64,000 bases of DNA, taken from Octopus vulgaris (taxonomy: Eukaryota). A program made the translations under genes and the position numbers. The stretch is from NCBI GenBank assembly GCA_951406725.2, contig OX597817.1:170314001-170378000 (forward strand). The letters are read 5' to 3'. Positions 12,792 to 63,553 of the stretch are shown one piece after another. The first letter of the stretch is position 1, and every line of letters starts with the position of its first letter. The notes under the pieces are model-generated. The model saw only the letters and a program-made list of their open reading frames with translations. It was not told the DNA's origin and ran no database searches.

Positions 12792-15700
12792 TCATCATCA
12801 TCATCATCATCATCATTTAGCGTCCGTTTTCCATGCTAGCATGGGTTGGACGGTTCTGCTGGGGTCTGTGAAGCCAGAAGGCTTCATCAGGCCCAGTCAA
12901 ATCTGGCAGTGTTTCTACGGCTGGATGCCCTTCCTAACGCCAACCACTCCGTGAGTGTAGTGGGTGCTTTTTACGTGCCACCCGCACTGGTGCCAGCCAG
13001 AGCTGGCAAACGGCCACGAACGGATGGTGTTTTTTTATGTGCCACCGGCACGAGGGCCAGGCGAGGCTGGCAACGAACACGAAACGGGGCGGTGCTGGCA
13101 ACGGTCGCGAAACGGAAGGTTCTCTTACATGCCACCGGCACTGGTAACACATCTGCAATTTCCATTGATCGATTTCCATTGATCGATTTCGATTCTGATC
13201 CTCACTTGCCTCAATGGGTCTTCACAAGCAGAGTTTCGACATGCCACCGGCACTGGTAGCACATCCGCAATTTCCATTGATCGATTTCGATTCTGATCCT
13301 CACTTGCCTCAACACGTCTTCACAAGTAGAGTTTTGTGTCCCAAGAAGGGAAGGTATGCATACGTAGGCTGGCTCCATCCCATGTAGAAGGCCACGGGTT
13401 GTGGACTCACTTGTCCTGCCGGGTCTTCTCGCGCACAGCACACTTCCAGAGGTCTCGGTCTCTAGTCATTTCCTCGGTGAGACCTAAAGTTCGAAGGTCG
13501 TGCTTCACCACCTCGTCCCAGGTTTTCCTGGGCCTGCCTCTTCCACAGGTTCCCTCAACCGCTAGGGTGTGGCACTTTTTCACACAACTATCTTCATCCA
13601 TTCTCGCCACATGACCATACCAGCGCAAACGTCTCTCTTGCACACCACAACTGATGCTTCTTAGGTCCAGCTTTTCTCTCAAGGTACTTACACTCTGCCG
13701 AGTGTGAGTACTGGCATTACACATCCATCGGAGCATACTGGCTTCATTTCTAGCGAGCTTACGCATATCCTCAGCAGTCACGGCCCATGTTTCACTGCCA
13801 TGTAGCATGGCTGTTCGTACACACGCATCATACAGTCTGCCTTTCACTCTGTGCGAGAGGCCTTTTGTCACCAGCAGAGGTAAGAGCTCTCTGAACTTTG
13901 CCCAAGCTATTCTTACTCTAGCAGTTACACTTTCAGCACACCCGCCCCCGCTGCTGACTTGGTCACCTAGGTAACGGAAACTATCAACTATTTCTAGTTT
14001 TTCTCCCTGGAAAGTGACAGAAGTTGGTCTCAGAGCATTTTCAGTGTTTATTGTTCCTGAGCATCTGCCACATACAAAAACCATCTTCCTAGTTAGCCTT
14101 CCTTTGACATTGCTGCATCTCTTATGTGTCCATAGCTTACACTTGGTGCATCTTATAGAGTTTCTACCTACACCTTTTCTACAGATCGAGCAGGGCCATC
14201 TACCTGAAGGTGTTTGTGATTTGTCTACCTTCCTACTGATTACGACTTTGGTTTTAGCTAGATTGACTCTGAGGCCCTTCGATTCTAATCCTTGTTTCCA
14301 CACCTGAAACTTCTCCTCCAGTTCTGATAGCGACTCAGCAATTAGAGCAAGGTCATCAGCATAGAGGAGCTCCCAAGGGCATCCTGTCTTGAATTCCTCC
14401 GTTATTGCCTGGAGGACTATGATAAATAGGAGGGGGCTGAGTACTGAGCCTTGGTGGACCCCTACCTCTACCCGGAATTCTTCACTGTACTCATTTCCAA
14501 CCCTCACCCTACTAGCGGCGTCCCTATACAAGGCCCGCACAGCTCTCACTAACCATTCATCTATCCCTAGTTTTCTCATTGCCCACCAGATAAGGGATCG
14601 GGGGACCCTGTCGAAGGCTTTCTCCATGTCAACAAAAGCCAGGTACAGGGGCTTATCTTTGGCTAGGTATTTCTCCTGCAGCTGCCTTACCAGGAATATA
14701 GCATCAGTAGTACTTTTCCCTGGCACAAACCCAAACTGCATCTCATCTAAACTAACTCTCTCTCTAATTAGTTGGGCTATGACCCTCTCCGTAACCTTCA
14801 TCACCTGGTCCAACAGCTTGATACCTCTGTAGTTGTTTGTATCTAGGGCATCACCTTTACCTTTGTAGCAGTTGACTATTATACTGCTACACCAGTCATT
14901 GGGTATGACCCCTTTGTGTATCACCTGATTAACTATATGGGTGACTAGGCTATAGCCGACACTACCAGACATTTTGAGCATCTCTGCAGTGATTCCTGAT
15001 GGGCCTGGGGCTTTCCCTGTCTTCATGCTTCTAATTGCCTTAGCTACCACAGAACTATCAACTCGGATAGCTGGTCCCTCTGTTGGGTCAACATTCGGCA
15101 GACTCTCTTTATCCCATTCATTTTCTTCATTCAGCAACCTTTCATAGTGGCATCTCCAAACCTCTCTCTTTGCATCCTCATTTAGCGCAAGTGAACCATC
15201 TTCCATGCGAACACACTTCTCTCCTACCACATCACGATTCTCTCTCACACACTGTCTTGCAACACGAAACACCTCCAGTCTTTGGTCCTCACGGCGCAGA
15301 ACATTGGCAAATTTTTTCTTATCTGCTTCCCCTCTGGCTAAATAAACCTGTCTCCTAGCTTCTCTTTTGGCAGTCTGATACAATTCCCTGCTACCCCCAT
15401 TTTTCCAGACCTTCCAAGCCTGTCTCTTTTCTCTAATAGCCCTGTCTACAATATTGTTCCACCACCACGTTATTCTAGGTCGAGAGGGGACTTTGCACCA
15501 GCCACAGATCTGGTCAGTGGCTCTCAGCAGGTTGTCCCTTAGAAACGTCCAGCTGTCTTCTACCCCCTGTGATGCTCTATCCCCTTCTACTTCGTCAGAG
15601 GCTTCAAGTAATATGTCCCTAAATCTCTGTCCATTTGCAGGATCTTTAAGCTTCCAGATCCTTCTTCTCCATATTTGTCGTCTTCTGGTTGTCCTCCTAG

Positions 15701-16592
15701 TCCTGATCCTAAAGTCACTAACTACCAGTCTATGTTGTGGGGTACATTCTTCACCTGGGAAGGTTTTGGCATTTATAAGCAGCCATCTCTCCCTTTGCCT
15801 TGTAAGGATGTAGTCAATTTGGCTGGTATGTTGGCCCGATTGGTAAGTGACTAGGTGGCTGGTAGGTTTCCTGAAGTTAGTGTTGCAAATCATAAGATTA
15901 TTTGCATCGCAGAACTCCAGCAGCCTGGTTCCCTCCTCGTTGCGGGAGCCATAGCCGTAGCCTCCATGTACGCCATGGAAGCCCCCAGCATGTCGTCCAA
16001 CGTGACCATTGAAGTCACCAGCCACAAAGATAAGGTCTCTGTCGTTCGTCAATGAGGTAGTCTGCAGTAGAGTGTCATAGAATCGGTCTTTCTGTCCATC
16101 GGGTAGCCCCGACTGAGGAGCATAGGCTGATATAATGGTTGCTAAACTATGATGAAGCACTAATCTAATCTTAAGTATTCTGTCACTTACTCTGATTACC
16201 TCAATTACTTTATCTACCCATTTCTCAGCGATAAGTATACCCACGCCACCAACCCCGTCAGTATTCCCTGCCCAGAAAATCTTGTACCTGCGTTCCTTGC
16301 CTGTGAGGAACCTAGCTGATCCTCCTCTCCACCTTATTTCTTGCATGCAACATATATCCACACATCTCCGTTCAAGCATCTCGACTATCTCACCAGACCT
16401 ACCTTTCAGAGTGCCAACGTTGAGGGTGCCAACCCTGAGGGTGTGGAAGGCATGGGCTCTAGAGACCCTGGGACGGTGGACAGTAGCTTCGTGTACCTGA
16501 AAAGAAAGATAGAAATCATTATTTAGTGGTACTCTGTTCAATAACACCACTATCCATGACAAAACAAAAAAAAAAGCAACCCTCTGTTTTAA
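12792..16592 (-). mobile_element. Near full-length RTE LINE with hairpin-rich 3' UTR and (ATG)n tail
   Basis: Contains the ORF above. The 3' UTR (12792-13406) has the GGATGCCCTTCC motif, an internal ~110-bp duplication (13128-13335) and a (CAT)n tail on +. The 5' boundary is uncertain (16496-16592) and abuts another RTE tail. Confidence 0.9.
13407..16496 (-). CDS. RTE-clade LINE ORF: AP endonuclease + reverse transcriptase + PHD-type zinc finger
   Basis: Uninterrupted frame of about 1030 codons. APE motifs TLNVGTL, MQEIRW, AYAPQ, GDFNGH, IDYIL; RT motifs KAPGPSG, YRGIKLL, QFGF, FVDMEKAFD, GVHQGSVLSP, YADD, FRYLG; RTE C-terminus RRLRWYGHV..RGRPRKTW. The track start at 16562 is TTG, not ATG. 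Confidence 0.95.
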   Translation of the reverse strand, partial: VHEATVHRPRVSRAHAFHTLRVGTLNVGTLKGRSGEIVEMLERRCVDICCMQEIRWRGGSARFLTGKERRYKIFWAGNTDGVGGVGILIAEKWVDKVIEVIRVSDRILKIRLVLHHSLATIISAYAPQSGLPDGQKDRFYDTLLQTTSLTNDRDLIFVAGDFNGHVGRHAGGFHGVHGGYGYGSRNEEGTRLLEFCDANNLMICNTNFRKPTSHLVTYQSGQHTSQIDYILTRQRERWLLINAKTFPGEECTPQHRLVVSDFRIRTRRTTRRRQIWRRRIWKLKDPANGQRFRDILLEASDEVEGDRASQGVEDSWTFLRDNLLRATDQICGWCKVPSRPRITWWWNNIVDRAIREKRQAWKVWKNGGSRELYQTAKREARRQVYLARGEADKKKFANVLRREDQRLEVFRVARQCVRENRDVVGEKCVRMEDGSLALNEDAKREVWRCHYERLLNEENEWDKESLPNVDPTEGPAIRVDSSVVAKAIRSMKTGKAPGPSGITAEMLKMSGSVGYSLVTHIVNQVIHKGVIPNDWCSSIIVNCYKGKGDALDTNNYRGIKLLDQVMKVTERVIAQLIRERVSLDEMQFGFVPGKSTTDAIFLVRQLQEKYLAKDKPLYLAFVDMEKAFDRVPRSLIWWAMRKLGIDEWLVRAVRALYRDAASRVRVGNEYSEEFRVEVGVHQGSVLSPLLFIIVLQAITEEFKTGCPWELLYADDLALIAESLSELEEKFQVWKQGLESKGLRVNLAKTKVVISRKVDKSQTPSGRWPCSICRKGVGRNSIRCTKCKLWTHKRCSNVKGRLTRKMVFVCGRCSGTINTENALRPTSVTFQGEKLEIVDSFRYLGDQVSSGGGCAESVTARVRIAWAKFRELLPLLVTKGLSHRVKGRLYDACVRTAMLHGSETWAVTAEDMRKLARNEASMLRWMCNASTHTRQSVSTLREKLDLRSISCGVQERRLRWYGHVARMDEDSCVKKCHTLAVEGTCGRGRPRKTWDEVVKHDLRTLGLTEEMTRDRDLWKCAVREKTRQDK

Positions 16593-16948: not shown

Positions 16949-17502
16949 GTTAGACATTATTATTTACTATTAACCTTTTTGATACCCACCTGCCTAAAAC
17001 TGCTTCTAGTTATGTGATACAAACTTCCTTTTTAAATTAAAACCCTCAATTAAAATTTCATGTTAATTCATGTTCCAAACATCAGCTTAATAATAACAAT
17101 TATTTTACTAAATTCTTCATTGTTTTCTAAATTACTTGAAAAAAAGACAGTGTATACCAAGAGAAATATGGTAACAAAAGAGTTAAAAGGTGCGAGGAAT
17201 GATTGAGTTAGTAGAAAGTTGCATATGTAATTAGACATGTAATACAATAGACTCAATTATCATCATCATCATTATCATCACTTTTCCAATCTTGCATGAG
17301 TCAGAGTTTGTTGAGGCAGATTTTCTACTGCTGGATGCCTTCCCTGTCCGTGACCCTCACCTGTTTCCAAGCAAGGTAATATTTCTCCATGGCCAGACAT
17401 ATTCTTGCAGAATATTGGAAATCAATGAATCGGTTTATATGACAGTGACAACCGTTTTACAACTATCACATGATGTCAAGACAAGACAAGGAAGGCACAA
17501 AC

Positions 17503-17919
17503 GACGGCGGCGAGCTGGCAGAAACGTTAGCACGCCGGGCGAAATGCTTAGCGGTATTTCCTCTGCCATTATGTTCTGAGTTCAAATTCCACCGAGGTCG
17601 ACTTTGCCTTTCATCCTTTCAGGGTCAATAAATTAAGTACCAGTTACGCACTGGGTTTGATGTAATCGACTTAATATCTTTGTCTGTCCTTGTTTGTCCC
17701 CTCTATGTTTAGCCCCTTGTGGGTAATAAAGAAATAGGTATTTCGTCTTCCGTTATGTTCTGAGTTCAAATTCCACCGAGGTCGACTTTGCCTTTCATCC
17801 TTTTGGGATCGATAAATTAAGTACCAGTTACACACTGGGGTCGATGTAATCGACTTAATACCTTTATCTGTCCTTGTTTGTCCCCTCTATGTTTATCCCC
17901 TTGTAGGTAATAAAGAAAT
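17503..17919 (+). mobile_element. SINE family B, head + 2 x 184-bp units
   Basis: Units at 17553 and 17737; TSD AAGGAAGRCACAAAC at 17488-17502 and 17920-17934. Confidence 0.9.
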
Positions 17920-19099
17920 AAGGAAGACACAAACATGTACACAGCCACACACACATCCATGTACAGGATGGCCCAAAAGTAGATTTACCCTTATCACGTA
18001 GGCACTTTAAATTTCTTTTAAAACATTTTATTACATTTAAATTTCTCTCTTACAAACTGAAAGGGAACTTGGTAAAATTAACTAAATTAGCATAGAATAA
18101 TGGTTTCAAATTTTTTCATAATTAAGATCTAATCTGTTAATATATGAATGCGAAAGAGATCGTTTTGGGCCACCTTATATACATATCTTATATGACAGGT
18201 TTCTTTTAGTTTCTGTCTACCAAATCCACTCATAAGACTTTTGTTGGCTCAGGGCTATGACAGAAGACAGTTGCCCCAGATGGAATTGAAACCAGAACCA
18301 TGTGGTTGGGAAGCCAACTTTTTACGATACTGCCATGCATGTCCTTCTTCATAAATTCACTTTAGGTTTTAATGCAAATCTGCATTAACATTTCAATATT
18401 CTGCTAGTATTTTTATATTTTATACTTCATATTGTATCATACATGAACTCATTTTGTAATCACAACCTTAATTCCTGCTATCCATTTGACCACCATTGAG
18501 CATGTCCGTTTATAATATACTCAAATGTAGTTGTTTCAAGTTAAATAAGATAATTATCTAGTCAAGGATTAAAATATAATCTGCTGTAATGAACATTTTG
18601 AAGTCCTTCTCTTCTATTAATGACAGCAATGGAAAACTATCTTCCTTGCTCTATTGGAAGTATTTTTAACCAACATGAAACACCTGGGTACTTTACCTAA
18701 CCAACAACTGTTATACTAATAGCCACACTATTAACTCACACACACACAGATCATCATCATCGTTTAACGTCTGCTTTTTCTGTGCCACCTGCACTGGTGC
18801 CAGGCGAGGCTGGCATTGGCCACGGTCGGATTGGTGCATTTTACGTGCCACCTGCACGGAAGCCATATATTGTATAAATATTGTATAAATCTATACTCTA
18901 TTGTATAAATCAAACACACCATTTATAACTACATCTCGTTGACAATTCTACAGTCTGAATATTCCCAGCTCACAATGAAACCATTGTTACCATGGGTATT
19001 CACTAATAATAATAATGATAATATGGCATAAGGCCAGCAATTTTGAGAGGAGGGGGTGAGTTACATTGACCCCAGTACTCAACTGGTATTTATTTTATC

Positions 19100-19695
19100 G
19101 GCGAGCTGGCAGAGACGTTAGCACGCTGGGCGAAATGCTTTGCGGCATTTCGTCTGCCACTACGTTCTGAGTTCAAATTCCGCCGAGGTCGACTTTACCT
19201 TTCATCCTTTCGGGGTCGATTAAATAAGTACCAGTTACGCCCTGGGGTCGATATAATCGACTTAATCCATTTGTCTGTCCTTGTTTGTCCTCTCTGTGTT
19301 TAGCCACTTGTGGGTAGTAAAGAAATAGGTATTTCGTCTGCCACTACGTTCTGAGTTCAAATTCCACTGAGGTCGACTTTACCTTTCATCCTTTCGGGGT
19401 CGATTAAATAAGTACCAGTTACACCCTGGGGTCGATATAATCGACTTAATCCGTTTGTCTGCCCTTGTTTGTCCTCTCTATGTTTAGCCCCTTGTGGGTA
19501 GTAAAGAAATAGGTATTTCGTCTGCCCCTACGTTCTGAGTTCAAATTCCGCTGAGGTCGACTTTACCTTTCATCCTTTCGGGGTCGATTAAATAAGTACC
19601 AGTTACGCCCTGGGGTCGATATAATCGACTTAATCCGTTTGTCTGTCCTTGTTTGTCCCCTCTGTGTGTAGCCCCCTGTGGGCAATAAAGAAATA
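19100..19695 (+). mobile_element. tRNA-derived SINE family B (Meta-like core), head + 3 x 184-bp units
   Basis: A-box-like head, B-box GAGTTCAAATTCC, core CCTTTCATCCTTTCGGGGTCGAT; units start at 19144, 19328 and 19512; TSD GTATTTATTTTATCG at 19086-19100 and 19697-19711. Confidence 0.9.
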
Positions 19696-20289
19696 TGTAT
19701 TTATTTTATCGACTGATTTATTTTAATGACAAAATGTCAGCCTTGGCACAGTTTAAACTCAGAATGTAAACAGCCAGGAAAATGTTGCTAAGTATTTTGA
19801 CAGCGCAGAAATAACTCTGCCAGCTTGGCAACTTATGAGTACTCACTAATTATAATAATAATTCTTTCTACTATAGGTACAGGGCCTGAAAGTTTCGGAG
19901 TGAGGGCCAGCTGATTACATCAAACCCAGTGCTTGACTGATACTTATTCCACTGACTGCCAAAGGAATGAAAGGCAAAGTTGAGCTTGGTGAAATTTGAA
20001 CTTGGAATGTAAAGATATAGAAAATGCCACTAAATATTTTGTCTGGCGTGCTAATGCTTCTACCAGCTTGCTGCCGTAATTATCATCATAGTTTCTGATT
20101 TGGCATGGTTTTCTACAGCTTGATGCCCTTCCTAATGCCAACCACTCCGAGAGCGTAATGGGTGCTTTCACGTCCCACCAGCATGGGTGCCATTTGTGTG
20201 ACACTGGTATATGCCATGAAAGTGATTTTGCTTGGCTTCTTCTTGGGTCTTCTCAAGCATGACATAATGCCAATGATGCTGATTTCAAC

Positions 20290-20677
20290 TTTTGGCACAA
20301 GGCCAGCAATTTTAAGGGGTTTGGTAAATCAGTTATATAGACCCCCCCCCCCAACACTCAACTGTTACTTTCGTTCTCGACTCTGAAAAGATGAAAGGTA
20401 AAGTTGATTTTGAACTTAGAATACAAAGGCGGATTAAATACCTATTTCTTTATTACCCACAAGGGGCTAAACACAGAGTGGACAAACAAGGACAGACAAA
20501 GGGATTAAGTCGATTACATCGACCCCAGTGTGTAACTGGTACTTATTTTCAATCGACCCCAAAAGGATGAAAGGCAAAGTCGACCTCGGCGGAATTTGAA
20601 CTCAGAACGTAACGGCAGACGAAATACCACTAAGCATTTTTCCTGGTGTGCTAATGATTCTGCCAGTTCACCGCCTT
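20290..20677 (-). mobile_element. SINE family B: young unit fused to an older copy
   Basis: Minus-strand junction GAAATA|GGTATTTA at ~20442. Confidence 0.8.
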
Positions 20678-20687
20678 AATAATGATG

Positions 20688-20725
<38 letters not shown>

Positions 20726-20736
20726 TATAATAATAA

Positions 20737-21102
20737 ACTCATTGAAATTGAGAAAATGTGGCATCTCAAGGCGGTTACAATACCAGTGATCGTAGGAGCA
20801 CTAGGAATGATCAAGAAGGGAACCGAAAATTATATGAGAATGATCCCTGGCTTACCATCCCTGCAAGAAGTGGAAAAGATTGTCTTAACTGGTACATCAC
20901 ACGTATTGAGAAGAGCATTGTCGATGTGAGAACTGTTGCTGCTCATGTATTTTAATTCAACTTTAAAAAAAAAAAAAAAAAAAATGAACGAACTACTGAG
21001 TTTGGTTTAATGGCCTACCAATGTATACTATGAGTTTCTTTGCCCTAGGAGTCGGGAAGACACTCGGCAAGAAATGGAAGCAAATTTGAAAGAAGAAAAA
21101 AA
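20737..21102 (+). mobile_element. 3' fragment of an R4/Dong-type restriction-like-endonuclease LINE within (TAA)n
   Basis: EIEKMWHLKAVTIPVIVGALG...QEVEKIVLTGTSHVLRRALS C-terminus; (AAT)n on both sides. Confidence 0.75.
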
Positions 21103-28944: not shown

Positions 28945-30235
28945 CGAGGGGCGTTCAATAAGTAATGCCCCTGACCCACTTCCCATAGCAGTAGAGCAAT
29001 GAAACTTGGCACAGTTATTAGTCTTTTTCTACATAGGAACCACCCAGAGTTACGCATTTCTCACATCGTTTGATGCAGCTCTGAAGACCATTTTTGTAGA
29101 AGACCCCAGCTTGGTCCTCCAACCACGACGTGACTTCAGAAATCAAGGCTGCATCATCTGGGAAACGCTTTCCTTTCAAAAACAACTTCATGGCTGGGAA
29201 GAGGTGTAAATCAGAGGGTGCATGGTCAGGAGAGTAGGGGGGATGGGGAGGAGTTCATAGCCGCACGCCTGTGCTTCTAATCTGGCGACACGCGAGTTGT
29301 GGACTGGAGCGTTCTCCTGCAGGAGGAGGATGCCTTTGCTGATCTTGCCCCGCCTCTTGATTTTGATAACTTCTATTAATTTCCTCAAAAGTGAAGCATA
29401 ATAGGCTCCTGTAATTGTGGCACTCTTTGGCAGGAAATCTGTCGTCATTACTCCGTCCTGGTCCCAGAAGACTGTGAGCATGACCTTGCCAGCAGAGGGC
29501 TGCACCCTTGCCTTCTTTGGAGAAGGTGAGTCACGGTGTGTCCACTGCATTGACTGGGCTTTGGTCTCTTGATCATAGTGATGGACCCAGGTTTCATCCT
29601 GTGTAATCAGTCTTTTGAAAAATTTTGACTCATCTTCTTGACACATCTCCAAATTCATCCTCGAGCAATCGACACGTTTTTGCTTCTGGAAAGATGTGAG
29701 CAACCTGGGAATCCATCTGGCAGACACCTTTTGCATATGCAAATGGTCATGAATGATAGTTTCCACAGACCCGGTACTAATCTTGACCTCATGGGCTATT
29801 TGGCGAATAGTTATGCGTAGATCTTCCAAAATGGCAGCCTCAACATGACGGACAAATGCCTCATGAATGGCAGAAGGGGGCAACCAGATCTGGGAGCTGT
29901 TTCCACAGAGTTCCGACCATGTTTGAATTCACGATGCCAACGTTTTACAAGGTCATATGATGGGGCATCATCACCATAAGTTACTTTCATTTCATCAAAA
30001 GTCTCCCGTGGTGTGCGTCCTTTCAAATGCAAAAACCGGATCACTGCTCGACACTCAACAGGCTCCATTTCACACTTGACTCAGTTCAAACACCTGTAAA
30101 TCAGAAACCACAATTAGTTCAGAGCTGTAATTTGCCACTTAATCTATAAAGATATAAATAATTGTACATGCAAAATTTCAGCTAAATCAAATAACTGCAA
30201 GTGGGTCAGGAGCATTACTTATTGAACGCCCCTCG
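28945..30235 (-). mobile_element. Full-length mariner transposon (1291 bp) in a (TA)n tract
   Basis: TIRs CGAGGGGCGTTCAATAAGTAATGC / GCATTACTTATTGAACGCCCCTCG with flanking TA. Confidence 0.95.
29050..30068 (-). pseudogene. Frameshifted mariner DD34D transposase
   Basis: HTH N-terminus (29811-30068), WIPRLL, QDETW; second Asp appears as QENA; frameshifts near 29880 and 29240. The 3' end is approximate. Confidence 0.9.
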
Positions 30236-31519: not shown

Positions 31520-31859
31520 ATATGGTCACTAAGTGGTTAATGTATTATGCAGCCTATCAAATGATACCCGGTTAGATAGGTTCTGGACCTTTTCAGGATA
31601 CTGGGTCATTTTTAGCTGAAATAAGGGCCTACTATGAATTAATCAATACCTCTATCACTGGGATAAAGAGTTTTAAGGAAACAAGTAAATGGTGAATTAA
31701 AACTAAGAGGATTAAATGTATTTCAAATCAGCCACCAAATTGCACTTTGAATCAGAAGTATGTTACCACGATAACACTGTTTCTGGATGAGAATAAAACT
31801 GTACAGTGATTATAGCTATGTTGTGGTGGCCACAGCTGTATTCTATTCAAAGTTATGTG

Positions 31860-33020
31860 ATGATCAAAGCTACATTGTAATCATAGCTATGTTGAGGTCA
31901 TAACCGTACCATAATCATAGCTGTGTTGAGGTCATGAATGTATTGTAATCATAGTTATGTTGAGGTCATAACTTTATTGTAATCATAGCTATGTTGAGGT
32001 CATAACTGTACCATAATCATAGCTGTGTTGAGGTCATGAATGTATTGTAATCATAGTTATGTTGAGGTCATAACTTTATTGTAATCATAGCTATGTTGAG
32101 GTCATAACTGTACCATAATCATAGCTGTGTTGAGGTCATGAATGTATTGTAATCATAGTTATGTTGAGGTCATAACTTTATTGTAATCATAGCTATGTTG
32201 AGGTCATAACTGTACCATAATCATAGCTGTGTTGAGGTCATGAATGTATTGTAATCATAGTTATGTTGAGGTCATAACTTTATTGTAATCATAGCTATGT
32301 TGAGGTCATAACTGTACCATAATCATAGCTGTGTTGAGGTCATGAATGTATTGTAATCATAGTTATGTTGAGGTCATAACTTTATTGTAATCATAGCTAT
32401 GTTGAGGTCATAACTGTACCATAATCATAGCTGTGTTGAGGTCATGAATGTATTGTAATCATAGTTATGTTGAGGTCATAACTTTATTGTAATCATAGCT
32501 ATGTTGAGGTCATAACTGTACCATAATCATAGCTGTGTTGAGGTCATGAATGTATTGTAATCATAGTTATGTTGAGGTCATAACTTTATTGTAATCATAG
32601 CTATGTTGAGGTCATAACTGTATCATAATCATAGCTGTGTTGAGGTCATGAATGTATTGTAATCATAGTTATGTTGAGGTCATAACTTTATTGTAATTAT
32701 AGCTATGTTGAGGTCATAACTGTATCATAATCATAGCTGTGTTGAGGTCATAAATGTATTGTGGTCATAGCCATATGGTGGTTAGATCTATATTAAAACA
32801 TCTATATGATGACCATAGATACATAATGGTCACATCTATATTGTTATCATGATCAAAGCTGTATTGTAATCATAGCTATGTTGAGGTCATAACTGAACCA
32901 TAATCATAGCTGTGTTGAGGTCATGAATGTATTTTGGTCATAGCCATATGGTGGTCAGATCTATATTAAAACATCTATATGATGACCATAGATACATAAT
33001 GGTCACATCTATATTGTAAT
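31860..33020 (+). repeat. 34-bp minisatellite in 102-bp higher-order trimers (array 1)
   Basis: Monomer TATTGTAATCATAGCTATGTTGAGGTCATAACTG with three alternating variants; period 102 (31921 to 32023). Confidence 0.95.
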
Positions 33021-33971
33021 CATAACAGTATCATGCTTATAGCTAGATGAGGGCTATTATTGTATGGTGGTCATTAGTGTTTTGTAGTTACTGTTACATA
33101 GCGGGAGTCATTTCTCTATAGTGATCAGTACAGTAATGACAGGTATATGGTGGTCATCTGTGTTAAATAGTAAAATACCATCACTATTTTAATAAGCAGT
33201 GTGGAAGTCCAAAGTGTTGGTGGTTTGGCCCTCATTACAGGGTGTAACTAGTGAACAGTAGGATAATTGTCAGGAAATTCTCCATAAATAGATATGGCTT
33301 GTTACTTTGACTTTCTGTTTGTGTTAAGATCACAGGCTGGAAAAGGAAAAGCATGATATGATAATGGTGATGATGATGATGATATAAATAATAATGATAA
33401 TAATAATAATAGTGTTTATCTTCTTTGTGACGGTAGAATGGGATTTATTTGAGGTTGATTTGTAATTATCAGAAGTCACAGATGGTTAGTTATTGTTGGC
33501 AAATTTCTATAATAATTGTAAAATTCTGAATCTACCTCTAGAAATAAAATTATTATATATCGAGCCAACAAATGAGTCTCTACATCTTCACTCGATCTGC
33601 TTGAAATAGCAGCCAAATCTTACTCAACCATCATAAAAGTTAAAAAAAAGTAAAATAGAAAATAGGATACAGTCAGATGGTGTAATCTATATTTAGAAGT
33701 TTGACTAAAAAAAATAAATAGATAAATAAATAGATAAATAAACATATGAATGAATAAACTTAATCATCGTGACTAAAAGGTTTTTTGATCTGCTCTTTTC
33801 AGTCAAGGTCGACTTGGGGCTAAACTACAAAAGCAAACAAAATAGCATCTGCATTTCTGGCTTTTCTATACTGAAGAATTAGTGACTAAATACTGTGTAG
33901 TGTTTCAAATCTTACTTAGGCTGACATTGCTCAGAGTTTGATAAAGTACTTACTACTTAAGTGCCAGAATT

Positions 33972-38869: not shown

Positions 38870-40037
38870 ATAATCATAGCTGTGTTGAGGTCATAAATGT
38901 ATTGTAATCATAGTTATGTTGAGGTCATAACTTTATTGTAATTATAGCTATGTTGAGGTCATAACTGTATCATAATCATAGCTGTGTTGAGGTCATAAAT
39001 GTATTGTAATCATAGTTATGTTGAGGTCATAACTTTATTGTAATTATAGCTATGTTGAGGTCATAACTGTATCATAATCATAGCTGTGTTGAGGTCATAA
39101 ATGTATTGTAATCATAGTTATGTTGAGGTCATAACTTTATTGTAATCATAGCTATGTTGAGGTCATAACTGTATCATAATCATAGCTGTGTTGAGGTCAT
39201 AAATGTATTGTAATCATAGTTATGTTGAGGTCATAACTTTATTGTAATCATAGCTATGTTGAGGTCATAACTGTATCATAATCATAGCTGTGTTGAGGTC
39301 ATAAATGTATTGTAATCATAGTTATGTTGAGGTCATAACTTTATTGTAATTATAGCTATGTTGAGGTCATAACTGTATCATAATCATAGCTGTGTTGAGG
39401 TCATAAATGTATTGTAATCATAGTTATGTTGAGGTCATAACTTTATTGTAATTATAGCTATGTTGAGGTCATAACTGTATCATAATCATAGCTGTGTTGA
39501 GGTCATAAATGTATTGTAATCATAGCTATGTTGAGGTCATAACTGTATCATAATCATAGCTGTGTTGAGGTCATAAATGTATTGTAATCATAGTTATGTT
39601 GAGGTCATAACTTTATTGTAATTATAGCTATGTTGAGGTCATAACTGTATCATAATCATAGCTGTGTTGAGGTCATGAATGTATTGTAATCATAGTTATG
39701 TTGAGGTCATAACTTTATTGTAATCATAGCTATGTTGAGGTCATAACTGTACCATAATCATAGCTGTGTTGAGGTCATGAATGTATTGTAATCATAGTTA
39801 TGTTGAGGTCATGAATGTATTGTAATCATAGTTATGTTGAGGTCATAACTTTATTGTAATCATAGCTATGTTGAGGTCATAACTGTACCATAATCATAGC
39901 TGTGTTGAGGTCATGAATGTATTGTAATCATAGTTATGTTGAGGTCATAACTTTATTGTAATCATAGCTGTGTTGAGGTCATAAATGTATTGTGGTCATA
40001 GCCATATGGTGGTTAGATCTATACCAAAACATCTATA
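38870..40037 (+). repeat. Same 34/102-bp minisatellite (array 2)
   Basis: Same variants and same terminal segment GTGGTCATAGCCATATGGTGGTTAGATCTATA. Confidence 0.95.
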
Positions 40038-55170: not shown

Positions 55171-55221
55171 TTCGTTATTTTCATTAATATTATTGGGTTG
55201 ACAAAATGACCGGTGGTATTC

Positions 55222-55500
55222 AGTTGGCAGAAACGTTAGCACGCCGGGCGAAATGCTTAGCGGTATTTCGTCTGCGTTACGTTGTGAGTTCAAATTCCGC
55301 CGAGATCGACTTTGCCTTTCATCCTTTCGGGGTCGATAAATTAAGTACCAGTTACGCACTGGGGGTCGATGCAATCGACTTAATACCTATGCTTGTCCTT
55401 GTTTGTCCCCTCTGTGTTTAGCCCCTTGTGGGCAATAAAGAAGTAGGTATTCAGTTACTGCTCTTGTTCTGTGTTCAAATCATGCCAAGGTCAATTTTGC
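55222..55500 (+). mobile_element. SINE family B inserted in an older copy
   Basis: GGTATTCAGTT duplicated at ~55215 and ~55446. Older monomers also occur at ~575-780, 19860-20075, 22060-22220, 44250-44460, 45372-45585, 51470-51680 and 62320-62490. Confidence 0.8.
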
Positions 55501-61810: not shown

Positions 61811-63553
61811 AGGTTGTTTTTTTCTTTGTCATGTGTTGTTGCTTTTAACTCTTTAGCATTCAGATTACTCTATTAAATGTAATACTTATTTATTTACGTT
61901 GTTTTGCATTAATCTCTCATTTTCTTGTAGCTTCAAGATTTCAATGATATGATTGTTTATCTTTAGAATGACATTGTAGGGTATGTGTGAGAGGCTAAAT
62001 CTAGTCAATTTAAATATAAAACAGGTAGAATATTTTCGCTCAGATATGGTAGGTTTAATTTGTGATTGCTACTTCTGTAACTTTGGTTTTTTTTTTCTTA
62101 GTATGGATGTCAGTGTTATGCAAACCCATTTTCACCTTTGGGAAGAAGTATGATCCATATCAGTCTGGTCTCTATTCCTTGACCTGTACAACATCAGAAG
62201 ACCTACGAGGAGCTTGCACTCTGCTTGCATAATTCTCAGAGTCATTGAGGTACACAAGCCACCACAAGCATAACAAAGGCTGGCCATTGTGATGAATTTT
62301 ACTTCTATGTTGTATATAAAAGTGGCAAGTTGGCAGAATTGTTAACACACCAGGCAAAATGCTTATGGTATTTCATCTGTCCTTACATTCTGGGTTCAAA
62401 TTCTGTCAAGACCAGCTTTGTCTCTCATCCTTTCAGGGTCAATAAAATAAGTACCAGTTGAGCACTGGGGTCGATGTAATTGACTTAACTACTCCTGGGT
62501 AAAAGTATATAAACTGAACCCATCTGTCGAGCCATGTGGCAGAGTAAGCTCATCAAACCAGTATGATCTAAAGCTCAAATTCATGGCTTCGACATCAACT
62601 GTGCCAGGTTCTCGGTGCCCAAACAGCTATGCCCTGTTGTCTCATTTCATGACAGAGGCAAAGGTGTTCACATGATCGTACATTTAAATCTGTATCTGTG
62701 TTGTGAGAAGAGAACAAGAACTTCAACTCTCTGGAATTCCCTCCTTAGAAACACTGAGCTGCAAATACTTTAGCTGAACGTATACCATGGCAACCTCACT
62801 AGATTGGGACTCTCCTCCTCTGACTCTCTTGTAAAGAGAAAATAAAAACAGAAGAAAGTAGATTGCTTAAAGAGTAGTTAATTTAGTGTTAATATAATGC
62901 AAAGGTCTTTAAAAGGTTAATAGTTATGTGGGAAAGGAACAACATGATTTAGTCTCTGACTATTATTGTAATTAATATACCAAATACAAGGGATAACTTC
63001 AGATGTGTTTCTCCATTATGATCTCTTCAGGAAAGCATAATCTTCACCATATTTTCTGAGGAAATGATGGGATTGTTATTAAATAAATATACAAGAATGT
63101 AAGCTGATTGGTGTAGAAAAGGAAAATAAGGTTTGAAAGTAAATTAATTGGAAACACAATCAGTATGCAAAAATGTTAATGGTAACGTATTTATTGTGTG
63201 TGTGTGTGTGTGTTTTCATCATTATTTAATGTCTGCTTTCTATGCTGGAATGTATTGGATGGTATGACGGAATCTGATGGGTCACACTAGGTCAGGCCCA
63301 GGGTCTACTTTGGTATGGCTTCTACAGCTGGATGCTCGTCCTTATGCCAACCACTTTACAAAGTGTCCTGGGTGTGTTTTTTAGTCCGTGTATGTGTGTG
63401 GCACCAGCACTAGTGATAATTGCCTTGTTAACTTACAAGACGAAGAGCCTACAGAAACCCCTATAACTTAGGGAGAGCGGACAGGTCTCAGCATGGCTGC
63501 TGCCCTGTGGACTGGGTTCAGGACTGAAACCAATACAAGAAAATTATATATAT

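Follow-up and report, generated by a model that had tools for sequence, protein, structure and literature searches.

Target choice by non-LTR retrotransposons is usually ascribed to the endonuclease, and crocodilian SINEs named SINEU are targeted to Mariner-N4_AMi by Tx1-Mar (PMC4494074). Tandems of a part of a SINE have been described as sSats in squamates (PMC10702118) and as arrays in the clam Scapharca broughtonii (PMC11481361), which are put down mainly to unequal recombination, and more of them are listed in a review (PMC9659126). The octopus SINEs OR1 and OR2 have been cited as CORE-SINEs (PMC4824008, PMC4758252) and SINEs constitute about 11.6% of the octopus genome (PMC13282606); surveys of octopus repeats (PMC13282606, PMC8967140) give family counts, with no such structure in the parts of them that were seen. 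Our literature search, with subscription papers, Repbase/Dfam and the 1994 and 2015 octopus papers outside its scope, returned no description of a SINE that inserts in register into members of its own family.

In this study, we analyzed a stretch of 64,000 nucleotides from Octopus vulgaris (the window) in which a young SINE is repeatedly joined to its own relatives. As in SINEU, a SINE prefers one site of another repeat and is flanked by duplications there, and tandems are frequent in SINEU as well. Unlike SINEU, whose target is an unrelated DNA transposon, the target here is the SINE's own family. SINEU tandems are whole copies with a duplication between them, whereas the joins here are in register and the 184-bp units are headless; SINEU has an snRNA head and a named partner, whereas the head here is tRNA-like and not of snRNA type. 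With the sSats and the S. broughtonii arrays, our arrays share the tandem repetition of a partial SINE, a head on the first unit only and units of about nucleosome length; the sSat layout of a tandem SINE portion with an extended terminal unit is found here as head plus two and head plus three units. Internal clam units lose part of the tail, whereas every unit here keeps a full one. In contrast to both systems, the junction here recurs between young and old families, monomers lie at the same site with duplications, and arrays have only 2–3 units.

The young SINE family and its arrays

The window is eukaryotic, has 38% GC and is rich in repeats. At 20677–20930 on the plus strand, (TAA)20 precedes a short coding fragment without Pfam support, which we take to resemble the C-terminus of R4/Dong-type LINEs. 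There are also a Mariner-type transposase fragment (29188–29928, minus strand; PF01359, E 3.8e-22) and two arrays (31837–33023 and 38870–40002) that share one 34-bp unit and show a higher-order period of 102 bp.

With head plus first unit as the BLAST query, we found 8 young units across five loci (A–E) and about ten older relatives at 72–82% identity, which have head and core in common with the young units and carry other tails. The young SINE is about 230 bp long, has a tRNA-like head and ends in AAAGAAATA; its tail is absent from the window outside the 8 SINE units. It is thus short, non-coding, interspersed and present in many copies (8 young units and ~10 older relatives per 64 kb), with target-site duplications of variable length (15, 16 and 11 bp at loci B, C and E). 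Of the 24 public sequencing runs found with copy C as query, four were mapped on 19084–19345. Two of these, X11 (organism A) and X12 (organism E), are contig sets, X11 being RNA only by guess, and their summed depth is not a copy number; contigs matching the SINE number 68,338 in X11 and 163,450 in X12.

A tree of the young units gives two subfamilies (C1–3 with A1, and B1–2 with D1 and E1; support 100/99), and its other forks are open. The tail reads AGTAAA in C1, C2 and A1 (19317, 19501 and 8767) and AATAAA in C3, B1, B2, D1 and E1; the G form makes up the majority of mapped depth in X11 and X12, a figure subject to reference bias. The heads of B and E differ at 1/39 positions. ARAGORN predicted 0 tRNA genes, and an Rfam search of 17400–20800 gave no tRNA match to E 5 and no U1 or U2 match; A- and B-box-like words were picked out by eye against the box consensus, and there is a long anticodon-like hairpin. 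Head and core presumably are those of octopus repeats, likely OK/OR1/OR2 SINEs or relatives. OK, OR1 and OR2 are the tRNA-derived octopus SINEs reportedly described by Ohshima and Okada in 1994. Neither 2 supplementary files accompanying PMC4824008 nor 1 file of PMC13282606 contained the core motifs, and pattern scans with tail and core gave 0 loci in viral, metagenome and prokaryote genome contigs. The older relatives at 608, 20071, 22079, 44256, 45408, 51475 and 62324 have a common head and core and at least three different tails. In contigs of the public runs, (TTA)nAAGG often stands before heads (58 in X11, 342 in X12); there is a suggestion that old SINE families favor (TTA)n repeats.

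The trimer, locus C, lies on the plus strand. Its upstream target-site duplication (19085–19100) is 16 bp long, starts with GGTATTT and falls in the core of an old minus-strand SINE; the downstream copy (19696–19711) is 15/16 identical. A single tRNA-like head (19100–19143, with an A-box-like word at about 19107) is followed by unit C1 (19144–19327, 184 bp), which comprises the 3′ arm of the anticodon-like hairpin, the shared core and the young-family tail and has a B-box-like word at 19171–19181. Unit C2 occupies 19328–19511, and the terminal unit C3 (19512–19695) has a C-type core, three tail positions of the other subfamily's type and AATAAA. TRF reports a 184-bp array at 19147–19702 with 3.0 copies. 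Removal of the trimer restores the old minus-strand SINE (19024–19815), whose tail side is 19024–19084 and whose head side is about 19712–19815, the end being approximate; the claim that the trimer's target was a different GGTATTT in an antisense copy is upheld. The core of the SINE RNA is itself complementary to the trimer's target strand at 19078–19102, so that RNA–DNA pairing might occur there.

Both arrays in the window, one dimer and one trimer, consist of one head and seamless 184-bp units within one outer duplication, with at most 3 units per array, 4–8% apart. The statement that the SINE turns itself into a satellite went too far, as only this dimer and trimer are present. Units C1–C3 share a C at 19241 that is absent from the 5 other units and accounts for about 2–3% of X11 and X12 depth; this variant and the single outer duplication argue that the trimer is not three independent insertions. 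The units differ from each other at 8–10 of 182–183 positions and the outer duplication at 1/16, so their divergence fits the age of the trimer duplication. Judged from its units, the trimer is of one lineage, arising through a multimeric template or local duplication, and alone it is no proof of serial self-insertion. The sequence-only reading had named one master plus unequal crossover as the pattern that would speak against it, and half of that pattern is seen here, in the shared rare variant and the one duplication. The three linked tail sites that set C3 apart from C1 and C2 point to a template switch or to a master whose last unit was distinct.

Dimer B (17504–17920, plus strand) has a head and units 17553–17736 and 17737–17920 (TRF array 17553–17920, 2.0 copies); its 15-bp outer duplication (14/15) is in non-SINE DNA and not at GGTATT. 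B1 and B2 differ at 14/182 positions, no fewer than the 11/182 that separate B2 from D1, so locus B could have arisen by in-register insertion or be a dimer of old date. That B1 and B2 are sister units is unsupported, since the tree does not resolve their fork and, of four shared states, 2/4 are at CpG and the others are common; a simple duplication by 7-bp microhomology does not explain the dimer, whose outer end is without GGTATTT. Monomer E (55215–55456, plus strand) is near full length, with the element at 55222–55445 and an exact 11-bp duplication beginning GGTATT (55215–55225 and 55446–55456), as had been claimed. Once rebuilt, the E target can be aligned to the very old 45408 copy with 20 differences over 73 positions; E lies in a very old SINE, at the position homologous to its own GGTATTT. 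Unit D1 (20443–20628, minus strand) lies between an old-type head (20629–20677) and an old body with an old tail (about 20283–20442), so that locus D is an in-register chimera of old head, young unit and old body from 20672 to 20442. Its head is far from those of other young copies relative to its body: D and E differ at 9/39 head and 13/183 body positions (Fisher p 0.006), and D and B at 10/49 and 15/184 (p 0.02). The headless unit A1 (8594–8777, plus strand) continues in register into a body of the old family (8778 to about 9005, head absent), which aligns with the copy at 62324 for some 200 bp with 37 differences; A is the weakest case because the old head is missing. At both A and D the upstream duplicate (7–8 bp) is the element's own GGTATTT, so these loci are indistinguishable from recombination. 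Matches to the old family confirm that older, diverged SINE lies downstream of 8778, 20442 and 55446.

The GGTATT junction

Searched with up to 2 mismatches, AAAGAAATAGGTATT has 8 matches in the window against 0.45 expected. Seven are SINE ends (8769, 17728, 19319, 19503, 19687, 20437 on the minus strand and 55437) and the eighth, at 61881, is not. The coordinates and motifs of the sequence-only reading agree with these tail matches, the TRF arrays and the duplications. GGTATT(T) directly follows the young tail at 7/8 ends, the exception being 17920, where the next letters are AGGAAG. The count as first given holds, but three of the seven junctions are array-internal and not independent, so the figure that bears on targeting is 4/5 outer junctions. 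With GGTATT at a site frequency of 0.00037 (0.005 within one mismatch), 4/5 is far beyond chance, for a motif picked post hoc. A target-specific retroposon has been defined by one sequence type in >20% of flanks (PMC4494074), a share that these outer junctions exceed, at small n.

The bias is not to the word as such. About 38 GGTATT sites are older than the young insertions, with 6–7 of them within SINE relatives. Young insertions occupy 4 of the 6–7 sites in SINE relatives vs. 0 of 31–32 elsewhere (p 2e-4 to 5e-4, post hoc); for this tally one site flagged in padding only was dropped and one doubtful ancient copy was counted both ways. Since the non-SINE sites, about 31 in the window, are all empty, the GGTATT word alone is insufficient, and the preference is for GGTATT within SINE-family DNA. 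Consecutive bases matching the element's own run-on number 8 at A, 7 at D, 6 at E, 7 at C and 0 at B. Likeness among the targets is downstream of the presumed nick, i.e., in the primer zone, and on its upstream side the trimer target has only a pyrimidine in common with the others. Common descent makes three of the four targets homologous, so as sequences they are not independent. On present evidence, the bias to the family's own GGTATT site is real and more specific than first stated: site preference is borne out by the outer junctions, two clear duplications, the chimera and the run-on described below, and fails only as a property of the word (0/31).

The public runs were used to ask how common the junction is. 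Depth at 19329, the second G past the tail, is 0.61 (X11) and 0.63 (X12) of that at 19320, compared with a GG frequency of 0.04. Relative to the preceding bin, the nine bases starting at 19327 hold 0.60 (X11) and 0.63 (X12), against 0.14 expected for random flanks, and the following nine 0.21 and 0.20; about 20% of tail depth continues through 19336–19344. Run-on depth includes array-internal junctions and is a rough proxy; for some 40% of the depth at the tail GG does not follow, a point against site targeting. Run-on into GG in both contig sets indicates that the junction is common under two organism labels. Among the loose ends listed for X11, the largest is the tail of another unit before 19147 (369 contigs), and the joints listed include young tails running into old-type bodies. 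The raw-read runs X23 and X24, with 14 and 223 mapped reads of 12.9 million each, were left out of these counts. Head vs. body depth in X11 and X12 was set aside as well, since several letters of the reference head are minority ones. Loose ends of X24 at 19262–19340 point to two tandems made of tail only, one of about 79 bp in which the junction is retained (47 and 15 reads) and a shorter one (13 and 9 reads).

Structure does not account for the shared site. The extended anticodon-like hairpin with GGTATTTC on its 3′ arm is present in the MFE and centroid folds, as had been proposed, and for the whole SINE RNA folding is not stronger than in shuffled sequences (z -1.10). The proposed junction hairpin GAAATA-GG-TATTTC has a 2-nt loop that cannot close; what forms is a 5-bp stem closed by a loop of 4 nt, with a stability of only -1.4 kcal/mol, absent from both 46–47-nt contexts folded, and we discarded it as a functional feature. 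Rebuilt targets fold at -0.6 to -3.9 kcal/mol, compared with -8.3 and -4.3 for the arms of E and B themselves. A cruciform as common cause was also rejected, as the four rebuilt targets are weak folds and the trimer target is not a hairpin arm; the common feature is sequence, not structure.

How the joins may arise

Target-primed reverse transcription starts from a primer strand that complements the beginning of the downstream duplication, here the complement of GGTATTT. We give an even chance to target-primed insertion that is biased to GGTATT(T) in relatives, likely by annealing of read-through RNA, with the 184-bp register set by a 5′ join at the internal GGTATTT. RNA from a copy at GGTATTT, or from any dimer, would be read from the head past the tail and carry GGUAUUU. 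No T4 run lies inside C, E or A1, and B and D have one each. We infer read-through because three of the five loci are without an internal T4 and the first T4 of the trimer lies in its flank, 9 nt into the downstream duplication. At a nicked target the extra GGUAUUU would pair with the primer strand, the complement of the duplication start. Where the target is a SINE head, its GGTATTT overhang would pair with the part of the cDNA that represents the GGTATTT inside the element; this lies 184 nt from the element's end, which would give an exact 184-bp in-register 5′ join and a dimer. One-headed dimers could then be copied whole or duplicated to give the trimer. The first pairing has its model in R2Ol, where target sequence at the RNA 3′ end pairs with the nicked target and raised insertion from 12% to 96–98%, and the second in 5′-truncated LINE inserts, where the target overhang anneals to cDNA at the join (PMC6530143 and PMC4245944). 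Unlike the SINE, R2Ol is autonomous, has its own site-specific nuclease and inserts into 28S rDNA, and its pairing is experimental, whereas here we infer it.

The junction geometry does not discriminate between pairing and cutting, since endonuclease preferences, as in L1, are also largely downstream of the nick; the RNA-annealing and endonuclease mechanisms offered by the sequence-only reading are inseparable on these data. Dimer B, at a non-GGTATT site, counts against site targeting. Something beyond the hexamer must favor SINE DNA, and longer homology between RNA and target is a likely candidate. Tethering to Pol III factors might be a cause, given that all four targets are near a B-box position, but on inspection by eye two of the old boxes seem decayed. 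A stronger form of annealing-biased insertion, in which the SINE is self-homing, the RNA and not the nuclease picks the target, and copies at GGTATTT gain run-on pairing with the same site in relatives, seems to us possible but somewhat doubtful.

Cutting may instead come first. A partner LINE with a target-specific Tx1-like endonuclease could cut the old-SINE site, with the young SINE inheriting this preference and, through the head that it shares, also hitting itself, and with RNA annealing incidental. We hold this to be rather unlikely. Duplications of 11–16 bp agree with such an enzyme, a bias to SINE over other GGTATT words suits a longer recognition site, SINEU is a precedent (PMC4494074), and L1-Tx1 families are among those given as recently active in O. 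vulgaris (PMC13282606). However, no LINE with the young tail is found in the window, and the trimer target speaks mildly against a single recognition site, being antisense, in another part of the SINE, and sharing little beyond Y followed by GGTATTT. The intact reverse transcriptase frame at 13407–16592 was rejected as the partner, as its 3′ end is (TGA)n and unrelated to the young tail. That frame (minus strand, 1061 aa, uninterrupted) has APE endonuclease and reverse transcriptase matches and a weak PHD match, with a (TGA)n run at 12792–12816 near its end. It is presumably a young RTE-type LINE.

We consider it improbable that the junction is merely inherited, without targeting, from an old multimeric master spread by retrotransposition, with units moved by unequal crossover and gene conversion. 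The trimer is where this explanation does best: the 19241 C common to its units, rare in X11 and X12 and absent from the 5 others, the near equality of unit and duplication divergence, and the three linked sites of the C3 tail, as for a distinct terminal unit, all suit it. So do the single outer duplications of both arrays and the first-head, last-tail layout, which is also that of squamate sSats (PMC10702118) and the clam arrays (PMC11481361). It leaves unexplained the 11-bp GGTATT duplication of monomer E and the outer GGTATTT duplication of the trimer. B1–B2 are no closer than B2–D1, and A, D and E always switch to target 6–8 bases past the tail, whereas conversion tracts could end anywhere in about 120 bp.

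Very improbable is a circular intermediate, in which RNA cut in the anticodon-like loop yields a 184-nt 3′ piece that is circularized and reverse transcribed by rolling circle into multimers, the circle supplying the annealing GGUAUUU: the unit does begin at the 3′ edge of the loop and the tail is complementary to its first bases, but this pairing is the -1.4 kcal/mol one lost in longer context, arrays B and C start with a head that a circle lacks, and the C3 tail, unlike C1 and C2 at three linked subfamily sites, is unlike the repeats of one circle.

Implications for SINE families

Repeat annotation will split or miscount chimeras such as those described here. Annealing-biased insertion would provide a route from dispersed SINEs to tandem arrays other than unequal crossover, and a route to the shuffling of heads, bodies and tails across SINE families. 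If a Tx1-like nuclease is the cause, this would be a second case of the SINEU type, with the SINE's own family as target. A very abundant SINE with thousands of natural insertions into old relatives of graded divergence would make the contribution of RNA–target pairing measurable from sequence alone. Self-homing, if true, would amount to a self-feeding loop in which old heads are reused as promoters for young bodies and arrays of nucleosome length are seeded, and an RNA that steers a repeat into its own relatives would be a rare case.
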